Shown here piece after piece: positions 1-54,388 of a DNA stretch of 54,388 bases; within the stretch, counting starts at the first letter, position 1, and every line of letters starts with the position of its first letter. Both the position numbers and the translations under genes were made by a program. The notes under the pieces were generated by a model. That model was not told the DNA's origin. It was given only the letters and a program-made list of their open reading frames with translations, and did not search any database. This stretch comes from Catajapyx aquilonaris (Eukaryota): the NCBI GenBank assembly GCA_000934665.2, contig KZ538679.1:1-54388 (forward strand), read 5' to 3'.

Positions 1-173
1 GTCGCAGAAGAAAGGTTATATATACAGATCGAGCGTGCGTGTAACAAAAACAATGTGCCTACCCCTCTCCTGCCGCTTTACAGTAGTCCTCTAAAGAACC
101 CAACCTGCAAGAGACAAAAAGGAAAAAAAAACACACGTGGTATGAGTGCATACACAACAAAGAGGCCCCGTTC

Positions 174-476
174 TCAACAAATGCAAACAAACTCATATCC
201 GAGAGTGCTCCTAATTAAGTTCAGACGCAGTTTTGACTCCCCCAGACTGACTGACATGTGACACGAGAGTAGCGGTTTTGTCCCCAGCGGGAGGGTCCTT
301 CTCAGAGCTCCGGGGTCCTCCTTTCCCTCCAATCTCATCGCGGTAATGGAGAGAGCATTAGGAAGCGACGATGGGTGTCGACTCGTCGGCCTCCTCACCT
401 CCAGAAAACCAGTTAGGAGCACCGGATAATAGCGCCCAATGTCAGCACCCATGACCCCCCATTTCATTATGGGAGA
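174..476 (-). CDS. Possible terminal exon of the same gene (weak candidate)
   Basis: Pyrimidine-rich acceptor CTTCTCACCCTTCTGGTGCAG| at 477/476 is phase 0 and opens a 100-codon frame (SPIMKWGVMG...YEFVCIC*). No recognisable domain or clear tail anchor; the true exon may lie outside the window. Confidence 0.2.
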   Translation of the reverse strand, partial: SPIMKWGVMGADIGRYYPVLLTGFLEVRRPTSRHPSSLPNALSITAMRLEGKEDPGALRRTLPLGTKPLLSCHMSVSLGESKLRLNLIRSTLGYEFVCIC

Positions 477-1834
477 CTGCACCAGAAGGGTGAGAAGTCC
501 GTCTTTTCTTTACAACCTCTATTAAACGGCACCGCGCAGCGGCAGCCCCCAGGAAAAATCCGGGAAGGGGGGGAACTTTTCTTAATCTTGTTACCATCCA
601 AAATGTGCTCCGACTCTTGAAGCACCCGGATTCCCCATAAGGCCGACTCCCATTATTGTCTAACGAGGCGTTTTACGATAAATAATTTATCTGCCCATAA
701 ACCGTCCATCTGACTCACCTCTTCGGGACTGTCCATCGGAAGGCAGCCCACTGATCAACTCGTTAGCCCATAAGCACAGCAATAATGCAAGAGGCGGCGG
801 TGTCCGGTCAGCCCNGCCCCCCCCCCCCTCCCCTCCAAACCCTCGGGGAGCATAATTCATCAATAATGGGCGCCCGTACAGAAGTGTGTATTATAGGCAA
901 CAGTAATTCGCGGGAGTCGGTCCCGGGGAAGCTACCCAATCTCGACGGGGACGGCGGCGCGCACAAAAGAATTGCCCTCGGAATGGGTGTCATCACTTGC
1001 AGCCAATATACCTTTTTATTGCCCGCAGACTGGGCCATCGCCAGTATCGGGCCTACCGGATTCATCTCCTCCCTGGCACATTGATCACTTTGATTCCGGT
1101 TCGAGGACTCCCCCAATTTCCGCCAAAAACTCCATTAATTTTTTTTGTGTGTGTGTGTGTCGCACCGTGCACTATCTTAGCACCGGGGACTGGCCGTCCG
1201 TCACCCGGTAATCATCATTTGCATGCAAATCCATCACCTCCCCCCCGACTGATTAAATTTATGCACATGCCCGGCCAATGTTCCGCACTAAATATCCATG
1301 TACACTGACATGTGAACAAGACAAACTAGTTTGCGTCAACGTGTTATGACGCATGGTCCGCGCAATAAATCGGCGGGCCCAGATTACCTGCCGGTACTTG
1401 ACAAAAGGAGTCCTAGTGATTACGGTGGAAGTGACAGGCATCGTGTTTGTGTTATGTTGCGGAGACGGTCTCATTAGCGAAGAGCAGTGACACGTGCGGG
1501 ACGCCACTGCCAAAAAGGGTTGTCCCTCTGTCATACCCGGGGTTGAGAGCGAGAAGAAGAAAAAAAATAAAAATTGGTTCCTCCGAAGCCCCCGAGGCCT
1601 GCTAATTATGATCCCTAGCGCCCCCAGCCCAACCCAAGTCTCCCCCTATTGTTTCGCGGCTTGCAGTCGACGGGGGGTCCCAAGGAGTAATTGTCGTGCC
1701 CCGGGGGAGGAAACCTCTTTTGTTGGATGTCGTCGCCTTTGCCTCCGAGCCTCGGTGTCGCATCTCCTTTTGTCCGCGGATCGATTGGGGGAAATGAGGG
1801 GGCTGGTGGTTGCACACGCTGCATGCACACGTAC

Positions 1835-2256
1835 CTGCACGGCGAACCAGTCGGCAACACGTCGCAGGTCGCAGCCGACCATGGCCCACTCCTCTTGTGG
1901 CAGCGTCATTTGAACCGGGGCGGCGGGAGGGTCCGGGCTGGTAGATGGCAGCACGGTGCGGTGTTGGGGCTCGGCCTCAGGGCGAACTCGGACGGTGCTG
2001 CCGCCCGCCTCGGCCGCGGCCCTCAGTCGCACTTGCTCCAGGTGGTACAGCCGCAGCCTCAGCTCCTCCTCACCCACCTGTCGAGGTGCAGCATGGCCCG
2101 CCCTGGGGTCGGACCAGGGGCAGGTGGTCACCTCCTCGGGCTCCGCCAACTGGTGGTGCTGCACCGGCGGCGAGGGGAAAGTAGCGCTCTGTACCAGGTC
2201 CGGGAGTGGCAACGGGCCTCGACGTCGACGTCGTCGCCGCCGACGTGGCGCCGCTA
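1835..2256 (-). CDS. Coding exon B: poly-Arg, Pro/Ala-rich linker and C-terminal BH3-like motif (candidate BH3-only module)
   Basis: GC-rich stretch within the longest ORF of the window (1646..2344). Encodes AAPRRRRRRRRRGPLPLPDLVQ...MTLPQEEWAMVGCDLRRVADWFAVQ and ends at donor GTGCAG|GTACGT (phase 0). LRRVADWF fits the BH3 core L-x-x-x-[GA]-D-x-F. Confidence 0.72.
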
Positions 2257-2805
2257 CTGTAACGACACCGCAAGACATATTTAGCCAACAGTCCATTTTT
2301 TTTGTTCCCGACTGTACCGCCCCGCCAAAAACAAACCGTAACAATATCCGATCTCACAAGGGTCCGTTTCTTTTCCCCCCATGTTGCCCNCCCCCCCTCC
2401 AGTTTCTTCCCCCTCTGGGTGAAGGGTCTGGTGCCCCTGTTATCTGGCGATGAGCAGGTTCAAAACAATACTGGTGCCCCCGGGGCAACCCCCACAGCTG
2501 CTGCCTGGAGAAGGTCAAGGAGGTGCATCCAGGCAGCAGACTTCTCATATTTTTATTTTTTTTTGTACACATCATGCAACGCAATCCCACTCGTAATAAA
2601 CAGACTGATTACGCGCTGTCAACCTCGTCTGAAATGACTTAATAAACGCGCGCTCAATTTGCCCTGGGCCGCATCCCACGCAAGACCCCCGGATGATTAG
2701 TCACATGGTTGGCAGTTACGCTACCGGTGTACAGTATTTAATTGTGTGGCCCGGTGTGGCCGTACAACAAACTTTGGCGCCCAGCTGATTTCCCCGCCTG
2801 AAGAC

Positions 2806-2845
2806 ACACAAGTCGAAACATGTTTGTCCTTGGCCCGACTTGTAC
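2806..2845. promoter_or_regulatory. Candidate p53-family response element: four contiguous decamer half-sites
   Basis: ACACAAGTCG AAACATGTTT GTCCTTGGCC CGACTTGTAC. All four keep the CWWG core at exact 10-bp spacing with zero spacer, and the second is a perfect RRRCWWGYYY. Confidence 0.6.
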
Positions 2846-3049
2846 ATTTGGGAGGCGCCACGTTGAACCCCCGCCACTCGCACGACCTTGAGAGTAAGTT
2901 GGGGCCCACGCACATCTAGTTACCCCGGTAGTTGTTGCATCAGACCACAGCTGTGCGAGAGTAACGACCTGACGAGGTCGCTGACTCACAGTGCAGGTGC
3001 ATCGCGGCCTTGACACCCTGCCTATAACTAGGTCACTTTACGCGCACTG

Positions 3050-3062
3050 AGGTCACTGACAC
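3050..3062. promoter_or_regulatory. Candidate ecdysone/nuclear-receptor IR1 element
   Basis: AGGTCA-C-TGACAC (imperfect IR1), with another AGGTCA at 3030-3035; lies just inside the intron next to the donor. Confidence 0.3.
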
Positions 3063-3072
3063 CGGTACTTAC

Positions 3073-3349
3073 CCACAGCTCGTCTCCGATGTAGTATCGC
3101 CCTGGCCAGCTCATACAATATGTCCCGCCAGTTGTCCCTCAAAAAGCGGCATATGACCTGCAGCAAATCATGCACCGGCACCACGTTGTCTTCTTCCGGA
3201 TATATGGGCACGGCGCCGGCCACGCCGATCACCAGCTGTACCGACACCATACCTCCAGTCAGTAGGCCGCACCACAGCCGAATGAACCACTCTGCTCTGT
3301 GTTTCCAAACTACAAGTCCAAGCAGGCCGCCTCGTGCTGTGGCCTGCAT
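3073..3349 (-). CDS. Coding exon A of a candidate pro-apoptotic gene: hydrophobic leader, internal IBM-like AVPIYPEE and amphipathic helices (alternative ATG at 3250)
   Basis: Open frame from ATG 3349 (in-frame TGA at 3386-3388 upstream): MQATARGGLLGLVVWKHRAEWFIRLWCGLLTGGMVSVQLVIGVAG-AVPIYPEEDNVVPVHDLLQVICRFLRDNWRDILYELARAILHRRRAV. It ends at a perfect donor GTGG|GTAAGT (intron starts 3072), phase 1, matching the phase of the acceptor at 2256. Confidence 0.6.
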
Positions 3350-3600
3350 CACCCATGGCCCTGTACTGAGCAACACTCCAGCCAATCACAGCACAGGATG
3401 ACGGGGCCTCGCAGCATGTGCTGCTCCATGTGTTTTGTAAACATACGTGGTGGGGGTTGCTAGGGAGGGAGATGACCTCCAGTGGTTAAAAAAGTAACCG
3501 GGCGCCAAACACTTTTCGGACCCGTTCGCGCGCCCGACTCGTTCCCGCCGGCGGGAAAAACACCCCCACCACACCCCAGCAGGTTGGGACATGCCACGTG
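3280..3600 (-). promoter_or_regulatory. Putative proximal promoter of the candidate apoptosis gene
   Basis: Inr-like TCATTC (3285-3280) and TCAGTA (3369-3364); CCAAT box AGCCAATCA 3380-3388; FOXO-type TGTAAACA 3436-3443; E2F-type GGCGCCAAA 3501-3509; palindromic TTCCCGCCGGCGGGAA 3542-3557; CpG-rich. Confidence 0.5.
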
Positions 3601-6600
3601 CGCGTACTGTCTTGCAGCATACCTACGACAGGTGTAATCCGATATTGATTCGCATAGATGACAAAACGTCTATGACATTATATTGATCCGCATACCGCAT
3701 ACATGTCGTATGAGGCTTATCGCATTCCACATGCTGGCTGAGTAGAAAGCCTGGCGCCGTTTGTGATATGAAAAGGAAAATAAAAAATAAGCAGATACTG
3801 GTAATCAATTACGCAGCACTTTTTGATGTAAGCATCTTACTGAAATAGCCTGCAAGAATAGGCAAGATCAGGAGGTCAAAGGTTCGATACGCGTTTGATG
3901 GTTCGATTCGCTAATTATAATAATTAAAATGTATAATTTGACACTCATTCACAGATGGGGAAAACACTACCGGTGAATCAACACTACACTTATTTGCATA
4001 TGAACCGTACTTCCAGGAACCTGACAATTGGAGCGGTATGGCCTGATACATCACCAAAAACATCCCCCTTTAAAAAAAAACCGTGACATACGACTCCTCG
4101 CACTTTCCCAACACCCTGATGAACCTAATGAGCACCGTCCATCAGAAGCCCCAAAATGGACCTCAATCCATCACACCCCATGAACAATAGGGACCAGAAA
4201 GACACGTTAACCCAACTCTAATTTATTTTCCCGCCTTATCCTACATAACCCAGTTATTATAGTCCAACTAGGATTGTATATATCTCCCCCCTCCCCCTTC
4301 CCTCCCTCCTATTTCCTAGATAAATGTCTTTTTGATGCGGTGACTTCCCGATCTGGCCACCACCACTATCTGTTGAGTCTTATTAAAAGGAGATACAAGA
4401 GGGACCTCCCTTTGACTGGTCCAAATCCGGGCGAGATGCTAATTACCCTAGGGGTGTAATTGTACGGAGGGCGACTAGGGAGCATCATTTAGCATCCAGC
4501 CTAGGTAATGAGATATGGCGGATAAAGTCTTCGGGGTTCTAAAGCCAGATGAATGAATAAAAGGTCTCGATTCGCACCCCATGCTTTCGTCTTCTACACT
4601 TTTTTTAAAGGAAAAAAAAATAGATGAGGGGGTTGGAACAGGATGATCTTGCCCAATCAGCCAAGTACAATGTAGGTATTAAAGAGGGTGGTAATTAGCT
4701 GGGAGTAATTAGAAAGAGAGATGATTCCATGGCTACTTCAAGGGGATTTGACGCTTTTCAGTAGGAAGAATGGTGAAGGGTGTGGGGATTGGCGGGTAGT
4801 GTGTCAATCTTTCATTAAGTTCAATAGTCATAAGCAGTGTAATTAATATGGCTACTGGGTCAGGTTCATGATGTCATTTTTTATCCATGGCCTATCAGTC
4901 ATTATCATGACCTGCCATGACCGTTTGTTGCACCTATTGACGCACTATGTGGCATAATGCACATGATAAAAAGTGATGAGTCGACCTTTTGACGCATGTC
5001 GCGACTGCACTTACGGATGACAATATCAATGGCCATCAGCAACGGTTCACGGCTACGGGGCGTTGTATTTTGGGAGCATTTTGAAAAGCTGTACAATCGT
5101 CTAGACCAGGAGACGTCTTTTGAGACTGACCCGAGGGGATTTCTGCCTCCTTTCATCACATTTTGAGTGGTTGTCAATATTGACGTACAGGGGCACCTAA
5201 GTACAGGTACGAGGTCAAGTGCTTGGACAAACTAACCTTGTTGCTACCTCTTGCATAATTCTATATAGCAGATCGATATAGCATGACTTCGATGTCATTT
5301 ACAACGGCTATAGGCTAATCTGGATATTTGATCATTAATCTAAGGTATAATCTTGACGCCTCCTCGTAACCCTTACTCTATTTTGCAAGTATATCCGCCC
5401 GAGTTCCATAATAATTTATGTTGTAGGTTTATGCATATTGACATCAAAACATCACATACGCCCCCCTTCACTAAACCTGCGCAAACATCATGCATGATTG
5501 AGATTCTGAGAAACGATCAGTCTAAATGATATTGAGTTCCAACCTGTGGCAGCATTCTTTTCAGATGTTTCACATGGAGAGCTCCCCCTGACTCGAAAAT
5601 TACTCTATACCTGGGAAGGTGTGACTCACCTTGTATGAATCACTGTCTACTACCCTGGAAGTGTTTGTGTAGCGGAATCCCAACTCATAATTGTGTCCAA
5701 ATGCATGCGACACACAATTTGCGAAATGGAATCGGTCTCATTTTTCACCTGTCCATCGTCAGAGTGTGTCTTAATCTCCCTAATCTTCCAAGAAGGTCCC
5801 GTAAGATCTGGAAGAACCATTTTTCATCCGTCTGCTACCAAGCCACGCATCCTATTACAATCCAAACTAATCAATCCTCCAGATTTGCACTCAACCGGCA
5901 GGTTTATGTAAGATATCTAGTAGATAGCGTGTAGCCTTTCCAGCCTTAAAAAAAAAACAACAACAACGGGAACAAAAGCCCGGTAGCCATCTAGCCATCC
6001 CCATCAACACATTAATTTTACGAGGCACTAAAGTAATGAAAGCTGCTTTTCCAGTGTTGCTACTAGGCAACACTGGATGATACTCGTATTTGGTCTTCTA
6101 AGAAATGACCAGGTCCAGGTACACACTTGTTGCTAAGGGGGGATTGAAAAGCTGAAGGAACGGACACTTGCTACCTAGTATACAAGGGACTGACCTCTGG
6201 GCCACCTGGGCCAAACAGCCTCGGGGGATACGGCACCGTAGGAACCCACCCCTCTTCAATTCCCTAAAGGCTTTTGTGGGTGAGTCATGCCCCGGTAAAG
6301 CAGGTGAGGGAGGGTCAACGGTCAGTCCAACAGTATTTACCACACAGGTGTGTCGAAATTCTGTTTTAAAAAATTGTATTCCAGATTTGTTACATAATGT
6401 CCACTTTTGAAAGTCAAGGTGTGTCAATACCTGTATTTACGCCATAAAGTGGTTTTTAATCAGAAAAAATATGGCTTTTCAAGGTCCTGCAAACAACAAA
6501 CTAGGAAGTTTGGTAAGGAGTGAGTCAGTCATGAAAGTCACGACCATGGCCACGAATTGTGAACGACCTGAGTATACTGTTTGGTCACTGAAGAAGGTGG

Positions 6601-43324: not shown

Positions 43325-43864
43325 TAGTGTGAATTTTCCGAGTCACAAGCCACTTCGGATATAGTAGACCTTCTTAAGGCACACTTCGGATATAATAGAC
43401 CAGAGTCCCACGTCAGATGATTCCAAACGTTATTTTAACCTTTACGTTGATTTCACGTCAAACTATCGTCTCAATGGTACTTTATAATTGATATTAAGGA
43501 GGTTGGCCCAGCATTGCCTTTCAACCTCCAAGGATAGGGAAGGAAGGAAGTGGCTGTGGCCTATTATACGGAAGCGACCCCGGAATTATCCTAGAAAGAC
43601 CGTGGAAAACCACAGAAAACCACGGTCAGGGTTGCCGGCCCCGGGATTCGAACCCAGGACCTCCCGATTAGCAGTAGGACGCCCTATCCACTATGCCAAC
43701 CTGCTTCGGTCGTCTCAATGGCACTGTACAATAGTCGTTACACTTCTTCAGTGACGTGAAAGGTGAAATTGATGTTAAAAGTTGTTAAAATAACGTCAGA
43801 GATCATCTGGCGTGGGACTCTCTACTATATCCAAAGTGGCTTGGGACTACGAAAATTCACACTA
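43325..43864. mobile_element. Fold-back MITE interrupted centrally by a SINE
   Basis: TAGTGTGAATTTTC..AAGCCACTT.GGATATAGTAGA..GAGTCCCACG.CAGATGAT mirrored by ATCATCTGGCGTGGGACTCTCTACTATATCCAAAGTGGCTT..GAAAATTCACACTA. Confidence 0.85.
43482..43711 (-). mobile_element. tRNA-derived SINE family 1 with intact 5' end and TSD
   Basis: 5' GACCGAAGCAGGTTGGCATAGTGG (A box) ... GGGTTCGAATCCC (B box); TSD GTCTCAATGG(Y)ACT at 43468 and 43712. Confidence 0.9.
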
Positions 43865-51629: not shown

Positions 51630-54388
51630 AAAGAGCACAGTAAAAATGAAAAGCAAAGAGTTCCAGGCAAAACTACTAAAGAGCCGATGGCTGATAACGG
51701 GGTATGAATTATAGTCAATCACGATTTTCATTGTCCGAAATTTTCTTTGGACTCTGGTAGCACCCTGTCCATAAATCAGCGTAAATGCCATCCGATTTGT
51801 CCGTCACCGCATCTTGAGCGAGGTCATTGGCAGAGGTTACCATCACCAACTCCTGTGTGGCTCATACATGACAATGAGTGCCGCAATCAGCATCTGCATA
51901 ACCGTAAAAGCGACGCATCATAGACTATGTGCATTAATACAGTTTAGCCCCCCCCCCCTCCTCCCATCATAATTGCAGGCCTATGAAAAAATAGAAAATA
52001 AAAAGCGACGGGAGCGAGATAAGTGCAGTCAATTAGCAGGGCTGGAGTATAATGAGGTCAGCCGGACCCCCTGAATAGTACATGTCATTGCAAGCTGGTC
52101 CTTTTGTTACGTCGCTTCCGGATCAATCCATGGAGAGATGAAAAAAAAAGAGGGGGAGGGGGGTGGAGGGGGAGTACAGAACGTGATGGTGCATAGAACC
52201 AGAGCAATTACACGCTAGAGCTCCATGCGTTGGCCAGGGTGGGGGAGGCCTATAGAGTAGGCTATTGGCGTCTATATGGAGTGGGCTGCTCTGGTTAGAT
52301 GGGGAAAGTAATTTAATTGGTCGGGATGAAAGGGGTTTGCAATGAAGCCTGGAGCTGCTCTGCTGGAATAGTTGCACCGCCTATAAACACTGTCATCAAG
52401 ATCCCCCCCTCCCCATCCCATACCCTCCCCCCTCTCCATTGCATTAGTACATCTCACGTACGGTGCACTGCATGCTATAGTGGGTTCCTCTTACTCAGCT
52501 GCATTATCCCGACCTACCCCACGTGGCTCACGTTCACTACCGGCTAATTACCATGGCGGACGTCAACTTGTGAGCGATGACATGTCCCTCCAGCTGTTGG
52601 GCCAAATATTATGGGGCATGGAATATTTTCGGAGATGCTTCTGGTGTATGTCAGGGTGATATTGTCAGTACGACGGGTTAAGAACTTTAGAACTGTATGA
52701 TTCATCATGGCTGGCAAATATTCCTGTACATATGAGCAGTTGCAGAACCTTGACCTTTACAGTACATTTACACTCTGATTGTTGCTTACGGCCATCGAAA
52801 CCGGTCCCCGTAACTTCCAATACACTGTAAAAAGTTGCTCAGTGACCATAAGAACTGAGCCTATAAGTGTCCTAAATCCATCAATTAATTCCGGGTGATA
52901 AACCATTTCAATTATGCGTTAATGCCTGACGTTCGTCAGATCCGAAGCACACGGTTTGTTTATGCTATTAAACAGCGTGTCACACTAGCGACACGTTTTG
53001 GAAAAGCGGGACGAAAGCGTCGGCGAGGATAACAGATGGAGATAAGTGCGTAGGTGTGTTTGCCACCTGCACTTTTTTGGGGCAATCAGATGAGGATCGT
53101 GGGGTCAGCACCATATGTCAGCCGACCCCGTGATCAAGTCAGCGGGGGGGCCGACCCCTTGACTGTACATGCTGCCCTATTCCAGCCCCGACCTAAAACG
53201 GCGTCACTTATTAGCGCCAAACATCCGCCGATAAGCCACACGCACCTTATTCCTATACCGCACATTCCGTAGTTCCCAACCCACATATAAATTTCATGTT
53301 AATTCAACCTGTGCTCATACTGACCATCATCTGGACTCGGCCACACGCTGGACACACGTCATTTCCTCCACTTTGGCTAAATCACCCACCGATAAATTCA
53401 TCCATGGGAGGGGGGGGGGGATATATCAGCTACCGTGCCTAATTCCTCCTGGTCTGATAAGCGTCAACAGGCTTAAGCCCGCCAGGAAAATAAATCAGCG
53501 GTGGCGAACCCTGTTGGTTGACCCGCGACCAACACCAGATAGCCCGAATAAAGCTCATCCCAAAGATTTATCACATTGTGTTATCAAATCGCTAAGAACA
53601 ACAGGTGTCATATTACATATTAGCACCGATTTAACTGTATATTATATAAATATAGGGGCTGTTATTCGCAATGCTGTCGCCAAGCTCCAGAGCTTCGCGG
53701 TAAAATGGACTAGCACATTTTGTCAGCGTTCTATAGTGACAAAAGCTGGTTTTCCACAGAGCCCATAATTCTAGCTGTTATCTAGTAAAGCCATGTCTCA
53801 GACCAAGCTCAGTAGGTACCATCCGGCGAAGAAGATTTATCTCCTGGAAACTTCTCTTATTCGTTGCGGCCAGCAATTAATTCTCAACGCAACCTTGCTA
53901 AGTGCCCAGAAATCATGGCCATGATTCGTGCTGGTGCAGCCAACACTAAACCAACCTTCGGCTACCGTGTTACTTCATTAGACTTCTCCCTTCCCCCCAC
54001 TTTTTTTTTTTTGGGGGGGGGGGGGGGGAAGGTCCGCTCGTTTGAACCCCTTTGCTTTTTTTTATATATATGTTCTCGCACAAAGCAGAGCAAGTGAGCG
54101 GCCTTCGAATCTTTTCATGGGGAGGGTATCTATGTGTCAAAAGGTGACACTAGTATTGGGTGTGGCTACCTGGGGGTATTCATGCCAAACGACCATTTTA
54201 TACACCCCTCCTAACTTTTTATGCAGACAAAAACTGATTTCGAACCTGGTTAGCAACAAGCTATAAGACTGATGAGCCTTCGTTCTGACCCCGAACCTCC
54301 TCAGAAAGTGATCTCGTGCAGTGGTGTGACCTTCAACGTCCAATCCAGCCTGCAACTCTGCACCTTCCCCCCACCGCACCGGTCCTTC

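Follow-up and report, generated by a model that had tools for sequence, protein, structure and literature searches.

A putative hid-like RHG homologue with a BH3-like block in a probable non-insect hexapod

The closest described systems to the locus studied here are the hid-like RHG genes of Hymenoptera, Dictyoptera, Hemiptera and Coleoptera (Friedrich 2021, PMC8620624). In the supplementary alignments examined, their products carry an IAP-binding motif (IBM) that is followed by acidic residues, then a helix, then LPDLV and finally W..G..LR.IA[DE].F, and are encoded by a small 5′ exon followed by a large, divergent middle exon. The tail of the family is recognized by a hydrophobic C-terminus, a Gly-Trp pair five to seven residues from the end and a terminal Arg. 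The insect rows seen begin with Met-Ala, and according to PMC13217685, exposure of the IBM requires removal of that Met. Friedrich 2021 records no RHG genes in apterygote hexapods; the family is there assumed to be restricted to Neoptera, with no origin stated. AVPI is the tetrapeptide of Smac. Smac/DIABLO and Jafrac2 both have an IBM behind a leader that needs cleavage; in Jafrac2 the motif begins only at residue 18 (PMC13217685), which gives an internal position a precedent.

The second point of comparison is formed by vertebrate Puma (BBC3) and the other BH3-only proteins, which have in common with the locus a BH3 core, its hydrophobic spacing and a disordered context. In the standing view, Drosophila and possibly all insects use IAP antagonists rather than BH3-only proteins in apoptosis (Ikegawa 2023, PMC10107002). 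Sayonara (PMC10107002) is an arthropod BH3 protein which, like the product considered here, is proposed to act via Bcl-2-family proteins; it is a coiled-coil protein (family PTHR21974) with a BH3 of dipteran origin, and no resemblance to the gene at our locus was seen. In a literature search that covered mainly open-access papers, we found no report of a BH3 in Hid/RHG proteins and none of an RHG gene outside winged insects, and the term “BH3” has no occurrence in the main text of Friedrich 2021. The gene family is known, and a conserved BH3 within it appears to be unreported.

The locus lies on the minus strand near one end of a 54,388-nt stretch of DNA (the window), the start of a contig in a 286-Mb animal genome. 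It shares with the hid-like RHG proteins all four blocks, their order and a similar overall length, and it shares with their genes a small 5′ exon and a large middle exon. It differs from the rows available in an internal IBM behind a 12-residue leader, in an Arg run placed before LPDLV rather than after it as in bees, termites and bugs, and in a tail that is putative. Compared with Smac and Jafrac2, to which no homology is claimed, its leader spans 12 residues and the cleaving protease is putative. Drosophila Hid, presumably homologous through the insect series, has an IBM-type motif, a disordered body and a multi-exon gene in common with the locus; unlike the locus, it has a Met-Ala start, a clear tail anchor and, in the dipteran alignment as far as available, no L-x3-[GAS]-D block. 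Puma has no similarity to the locus outside the motif; the locus Trp lies one residue closer, and an IBM-like motif and RHG blocks are present. We consider it very probable that the locus is a homologue of the hid-like RHG genes. The first-pass annotation had read this DNA as a BH3-only gene like Puma or Bim. The BH3-like block stands; the gene is not a stand-alone BH3-only gene, and is better described as a hid-like RHG homologue with an upstream IBM exon.

Gene model and RHG-like blocks

The 20-residue motif that had been placed directly before an exon boundary is reproduced by translation of positions 1894–1835 (minus strand), after which the DNA continues with GT. The donor at 1835 (CAG/GTACGT, phase 0) outscores 99.8% of the 3202 minus-strand GT sites of the window on a generic matrix. 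Upstream, a phase-1 donor at 3073 and an acceptor of equal phase at 2256 fit each other in the motif's reading frame (Table 1). This donor outscores 99.5% of GT sites on the generic matrix, and the acceptor is of moderate strength (92nd percentile). For exons A and B alike, the proposed frame is the best of six by codon usage, with exon A (3250–3074) outscoring each of 295 background open frames of its length and exon B (2257–1835) each of the 12 available at such a length; the codon-usage model was built from 1077 codons, taken at five further loci in this genome, and is in part driven by GC content. The 13 codons from an ATG at 2296 score as non-coding (69% of background as high), as does the 62-codon read-through past 1835 (15% as high), and because these flanking codons look non-coding, both splice sites of exon B are supported. 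Codon usage and phases combined support a predicted splice of exon A to exon B, which would yield a product of 200 residues before the donor at 1835 is reached. Exon A could be longer by 33 moderately coding-like codons if translation began at an in-frame ATG at 3349; from that start the leader would measure 45 residues. Exon B is a low-complexity middle exon rich in Pro, Arg, Glu and Ala (63% P/R/E/A/S/Q/G), and composition, the only basis here, suggests that the encoded stretch is largely unfolded.

Table 1 Features of the locus (window coordinates).
Feature	Position	Strand	Remarks
Exon A, coding part	3073..3250	−	ATG 3250; 59 codons + 1 base; phase-1 donor G/GTAAGT; open frame
12-residue hydrophobic leader	3215..3250	−	Precedes IBM; absent from insect rows seen
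IAP-binding motif AVPI + acidic stretch	3188..3214	−	Resembles hid-like RHG N-termini, but internal
Amphipathic helix ending in LYE..R.IL.R block	3086..3169	−	Block common to hemipteran, dictyopteran, hymenopteran and lepidopteran RHG proteins (rows available)
Exon B, 422 nt	1835..2256	−	Phase-1 acceptor 2256 (NAGNAG alternative 2253); phase-0 donor 1835
LPLPDLV block	2192..2212	−	Kept in hymenopteran, hemipteran and dictyopteran RHG proteins (rows available)
BH3-like block W..[VI]G..LR.[IV]A[DE].F	1844..1888	−	Hydrophobic V, L, V, F; small G, A; Asp
Possible tail exon remnant or part	399..509	−	[GS]LL[ST].L[ILV] match 500–480; 78-nt phase 0-0 candidate 476–399
Candidate 3′ exon	1..104	−	Strongest acceptor scored in 1–6000 (99.9th percentile of window); candidate for this gene only

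Each of the four blocks matches once in the six frames of the window, and the four matches fall on the minus strand, within 1.4 kb and in the order seen in insects. Expected counts per 54-kb window were taken from 60 order-3 Markov simulations. The pattern of IBM plus acidic stretch (3214–3188) is expected 0.017 times and LPD[LIV]V (2206–2192) 0.23 times per window; LY[ED]..R.IL.R (3118–3086) and the BH3-block pattern (1888–1844) were matched in none of the 60 simulated windows. Written as a DNA pattern, the BH3 block has a single match in the 286-Mb genome, at the locus, while the backwards control has none and the chance expectation is about 0.02 by hand estimate. The patterns were written after both sides had been seen, with Val allowed at one position that is Ile in the insects, and likeness to the insect proteins was judged by eye and with short patterns rather than by a scored alignment. 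On this footing, the sequence of IBM, helix, LPDLV and pre-tail helix is the RHG order of the rows available. Hydrophobic moment peaks at 3169–3125, and ten consecutive residues around LPDLV are the same, by eye, as in the hymenopteran row Obir_HY_XP_011342863 of the available alignment. The first two exons also fit the RHG three-exon layout (small, large, small), for which the third exon is represented by candidates only.

The AVPI at 3214–3203 conforms to the IBM consensus A-[KTVI]-[PAE]-[FEISY]. It does not directly follow an initiator Met: 12 codons separate ATG 3250 from the Ala codon, and neither an ATG nor an AG acceptor directly precedes that codon. By codon usage the leader ranks within the top 0.1% of 5674 background frames. 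Since the IBM needs a free N-terminal Ala, it is latent or a relic unless the 12-residue leader is cut off; we infer that the IAP-binding arm would be latent in this gene and would work if the leader is cleaved, or else is a relic. The locus thereby fails one defining RHG feature, the N-terminal IBM, and for this reason we class it as a variant homologue and not as an RHG member.

Database searches returned little. Against 5.8 billion proteins, the open frame of exon B gave no match at E ≤ 0.01 among 414 candidates and none at E ≤ 10 among 8000 scored, and against 1.84 billion representatives it gave none at E ≤ 0.001. These blanks say little, because the clear Bcl-2 domain of a second gene in this genome (L008, below) likewise returned nothing. 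Pfam assigned exon B to no family and exon A only to a weak JHBP match (E 0.3), and the same scan of the two exons found no other BH domain. No second copy of either exon was found in the 286-Mb genome; the best other match to exon B has E 0.52, and that to exon A has E 0.47 and belongs to a MATH-BTB gene.

Several smaller features accompany the gene model. On the minus strand, a reverse CCAAT box (3386) together with TCATTC, an Inr-like sequence (3285), would make ATG 3250 the first start, by consensus matching only. An ATG at 3356 (minus strand) is out of frame in a strong context. Running off exon A without splicing (3250–3053, minus strand) gives 65 residues that resemble a lepidopteran short RHG isoform and may represent a short isoform here. 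A second possible isoform would use a strong acceptor at 2504 (minus strand): entered in phase 1, it opens a short tail at 2504–2440 with hydrophobic residues and an Arg at its end, the codons of which score as non-coding. Single Ns stand within C runs in both introns (815 and 2390) and may stand for gaps hiding sequence.

Tail exon and contig end

The tail anchor that the first-pass annotation proposed to seek in a missing 3′ exon was not found with confidence in 1–1834: this region holds no intact exon for an insect-like anchor and no phase-0 continuation that would give one. Two candidates were considered (Table 1). The acceptor at 104 gives, in phase 0, eight residues and a stop, with Gly and Phe seven and six residues from the stop; in phase 1, which requires an unseen intervening exon, it gives W-V-L and a stop. 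By codon usage, 17% of background frames score as high as this exon. The pre-tail motif [GS]LL[ST].L[ILV] has one match in the window at 500–480, where 1.3 are expected, and no phase-0 acceptor lies upstream of it in its frame. Codons at 509–477 score as coding (1% of background as high) and those at 476–399 as non-coding (47%). As an insect tail, 509–399 was rejected, since it lacks an acceptor and could be read through only with additional changes of frame.

Exon B lies 1.8 kb from the downstream end of the contig, and a gap may be concealed by the single N at 815; the assembly can therefore lack the tail exon. No contig overlapping window positions 1–520 was found in the genome. Two very strong donor-like sites lie within 1.8 kb below exon B, at 719 and 399 (minus strand; 99.9th and 99.8th percentile). 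On the other side of the gene, no Pfam family passed its cut-off in 3400–54388 (149 of the 168 open frames of at least 75 residues in the whole window were scanned, a length at which short exons are missed); upstream of the gene, these approximately 50 kb look like a gene desert that may have a regulatory role. A tRNA-like element at 43633–43704 (minus strand) sits exactly at the Rfam gathering score of 29 bits.

Probable BH3 character of the fourth block

The core of the fourth block agrees with the minimal BH3 definition L-X3-[GAS]-D, as quoted in Ikegawa 2023 (PMC10107002), and the alignment of hydrophobic positions, small residues and Asp with known BH3 sequences proposed in the first-pass annotation is borne out. 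A 27-residue query against 177,635 PDB sequences gave three matches at E ≤ 10; Puma BH3 peptides take the top two places, at E values (0.33 and 0.36) that on their own are not significant. The earlier suggestion that the upstream Trp also resembles Puma did not survive: the alignment needs a one-residue gap, as the Trp lies three residues before the first hydrophobic position at the locus and four in Puma, and it stands instead in register with the insect hid-like proteins of the rows available. Within the genome itself, the block is identical at 8 of 12 positions to the BH3 of the Bax-like gene described below. A generic BH3 regular expression produced two strict matches, the locus motif among them, and three loose ones in the six frames of the window; such an expression is not specific, and the BH3 motif alone is weak evidence. 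The other strict match, at 53197–53232 (minus strand), has no other support and is taken as chance. The Pfam models PUMA (PF15826) and Bclx_interact (PF08945) do not match the locus; in genome searches, which ran without a positive control, PUMA gave no candidate, and a sub-threshold Bim-model match elsewhere (L011) looks like chance and was set aside. p53-like sites are not above chance.

Conservation of the Leu and the Asp, on which the BH3 proposal had been made to depend, holds in many homologues. By eye, the L-x3-[GAS]-D core is found in 23 of 82 insect RHG rows in the available parts of supplements S3–S9 (S2 was left out of the count). It is kept in 18 of 20 hymenopteran rows, with Gly for Asp in the other two, and in 3/3 Dictyoptera and 2/15 Coleoptera; three more beetle rows have it in part and ten have lost it. 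Glu replaces Asp in seven of the eight non-aphid Hemiptera. The core is absent from all aphid (10/10), lepidopteran (13/13) and dipteran (13/13) rows seen, Hid included, and most of the lepidopteran ones retain a Trp...Ala-Asp remnant without the Leu. Flanking sequence in these alignments is mostly not alignable between insect orders. No lead emerged on a joint loss of Bcl-2 genes in aphids; the term “Bcl” does not occur in the aphid paper.

Candidate partner genes, host and competing readings

All three of the genome's scored Bcl-2-family candidates lie above the cut-off. The first, L008 (1270–2208, minus strand), is Bcl-2-like: its closest PDB entry is Bcl-xL, its BH1 contains W-G-R, a long acidic extension precedes the domain at the N-terminus, and a second exon from 1087 onward encodes a tail anchor. 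In solved complexes, the Arg of the BH1 W-G-R pairs with the BH3 Asp. L010 (1393–1950, minus strand) is closest to Bax in the PDB; it lacks the usual W-G-R in BH1, and its BH3 has Ala-Asp. The third, L009, we take to be Bok-like from its sequence features. By these assignments, the genome has plausible Bcl-2-family partners for a BH3 in the form of Bcl-2-like, Bax-like and Bok-like genes. Of 32 candidates scored for BIR domains, 22 matched; their spread over at least 13 contigs suggests an expanded IAP family.

The host can be placed from other loci. The mitochondrial contig has the order COX1, a tRNA with anticodon UAA, and COX2, and COX1-tRNA-COX2 is the pancrustacean arrangement. Odorant-binding proteins are represented by three clustered matches, which suggest a hexapod. 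The odorant-receptor family gave only two weak matches among 15 candidates, the better of them a gustatory receptor, in an assembly that may be incomplete. According to Brand 2018, odorant receptors are present in all insect genomes and absent from Collembola and Diplura. Their near-absence here therefore makes the host probably a non-insect hexapod, outside the published range of the RHG family.

How the fourth block is to be read was weighed against four other explanations. It might be a chance string in GC-rich non-coding DNA, as generic BH3 patterns do match by chance in the window and no database homologue was found; set against the genome-unique match, the three further collinear blocks and the codon periodicity, we hold this to be extremely improbable. 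Scarcely more credible is a stand-alone gene of the Puma/Bim type, unrelated to RHG and starting at ATG 2296. That ATG lies in frame and has a purine at −3, and Puma peptides are the top PDB matches, but the codons from it score as non-coding, the LPDLV block typical of RHG proteins is itself in exon B while two further blocks lie in phase in exon A, the Trp keeps the RHG rather than the Puma register, and the Pfam PUMA and Bim models miss the locus. A decaying or non-functional hid homologue, having lost its start Met and its tail exon, would account for the lack of a Met before the IBM and of an intact tail-anchor exon in 1–1834. We judge it quite unlikely, given that both exons are open with coding-like codon use, leader included, that the donors are strong and that no second copy was found; the nearby contig end and the N at 815 also mean that the assembly may omit the tail exon.

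The remaining alternative accepts the hid homologue and makes of the block an amphipathic helix for another partner (the IAP RING domain, Bruce, self-association or the membrane), with its BH3 look incidental. Several of the insect rows available do have Glu or Gly in place of the Asp, sequence-based prediction of BH3 motifs is unreliable according to Ikegawa 2023 (PMC10107002), and an AlphaFold3 study models Hid helix 2 (302–320), similarly placed before the tail, against the DIAP1 RING (PMC13217685; model only). The sequence of that Hid helix differs, however, from the block at our locus in the portion seen. Across orders, conservation in the available rows falls on the BH3 positions, small residues and polar-face acid included, and the identity to the genome's own Bax-like BH3 points the same way. 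This explanation is unlikely, though not negligibly so. The data fit best with a hid homologue that would kill via binding to a Bcl-2 groove and would hold a latent IAP arm, a reading we favour with some confidence on sequence grounds.

In the mechanism proposed for this two-armed homologue, the BH3 block would fold as a helix in the groove of the pro-survival Bcl-2-like protein L008, its V, L, V and F occupying four groove pockets. Binding of the groove would free the Bax-like and Bok-like proteins and lead to caspase activation. The IBM would be a second arm, conditional on leader cleavage as for Smac and Jafrac2. Extended to the family, we offer tentatively, at slightly less than even confidence, that the RHG protein of the hexapod ancestor could trigger death through two arms, an IBM and a true BH3. 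Both would persist in bees, in termites and in some bugs and beetles, flies, moths and aphids would have lost the BH3, and in the present gene, from an early-branching hexapod, the IAP arm would in addition be gated by a cleavable leader in the manner of Smac. If such an ancestor existed, loss of the BH3 would explain why the Drosophila model seems to be without a classical BH3-only protein.

A conserved BH3-type helix in a relative of hid hints that fly-style and worm/mammal-style death switches once shared one protein. Should the BH3 work, both death switches, the IAP-blocking and the Bcl-2-blocking, would reside in one protein family, the RHG family would predate winged insects, and the fly state would be a secondary loss. 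The claim is open to cheap testing in honey bee, Nasonia, cockroach or termite.

A further feature touches the partner gene. The tetrapeptide T-Q-T-P resembles the site by which Bim and Bmf bind the dynein light chain LC8, and we take S-T-Q-T in the acidic extension of the Bcl-2-like protein L008 to be a possible LC8 site. Dipteran Hid-like proteins, in the part of PMC8620624 S3 available, have T-Q-T-P near the N-terminus, with V-Q-T-P in two mosquito rows.
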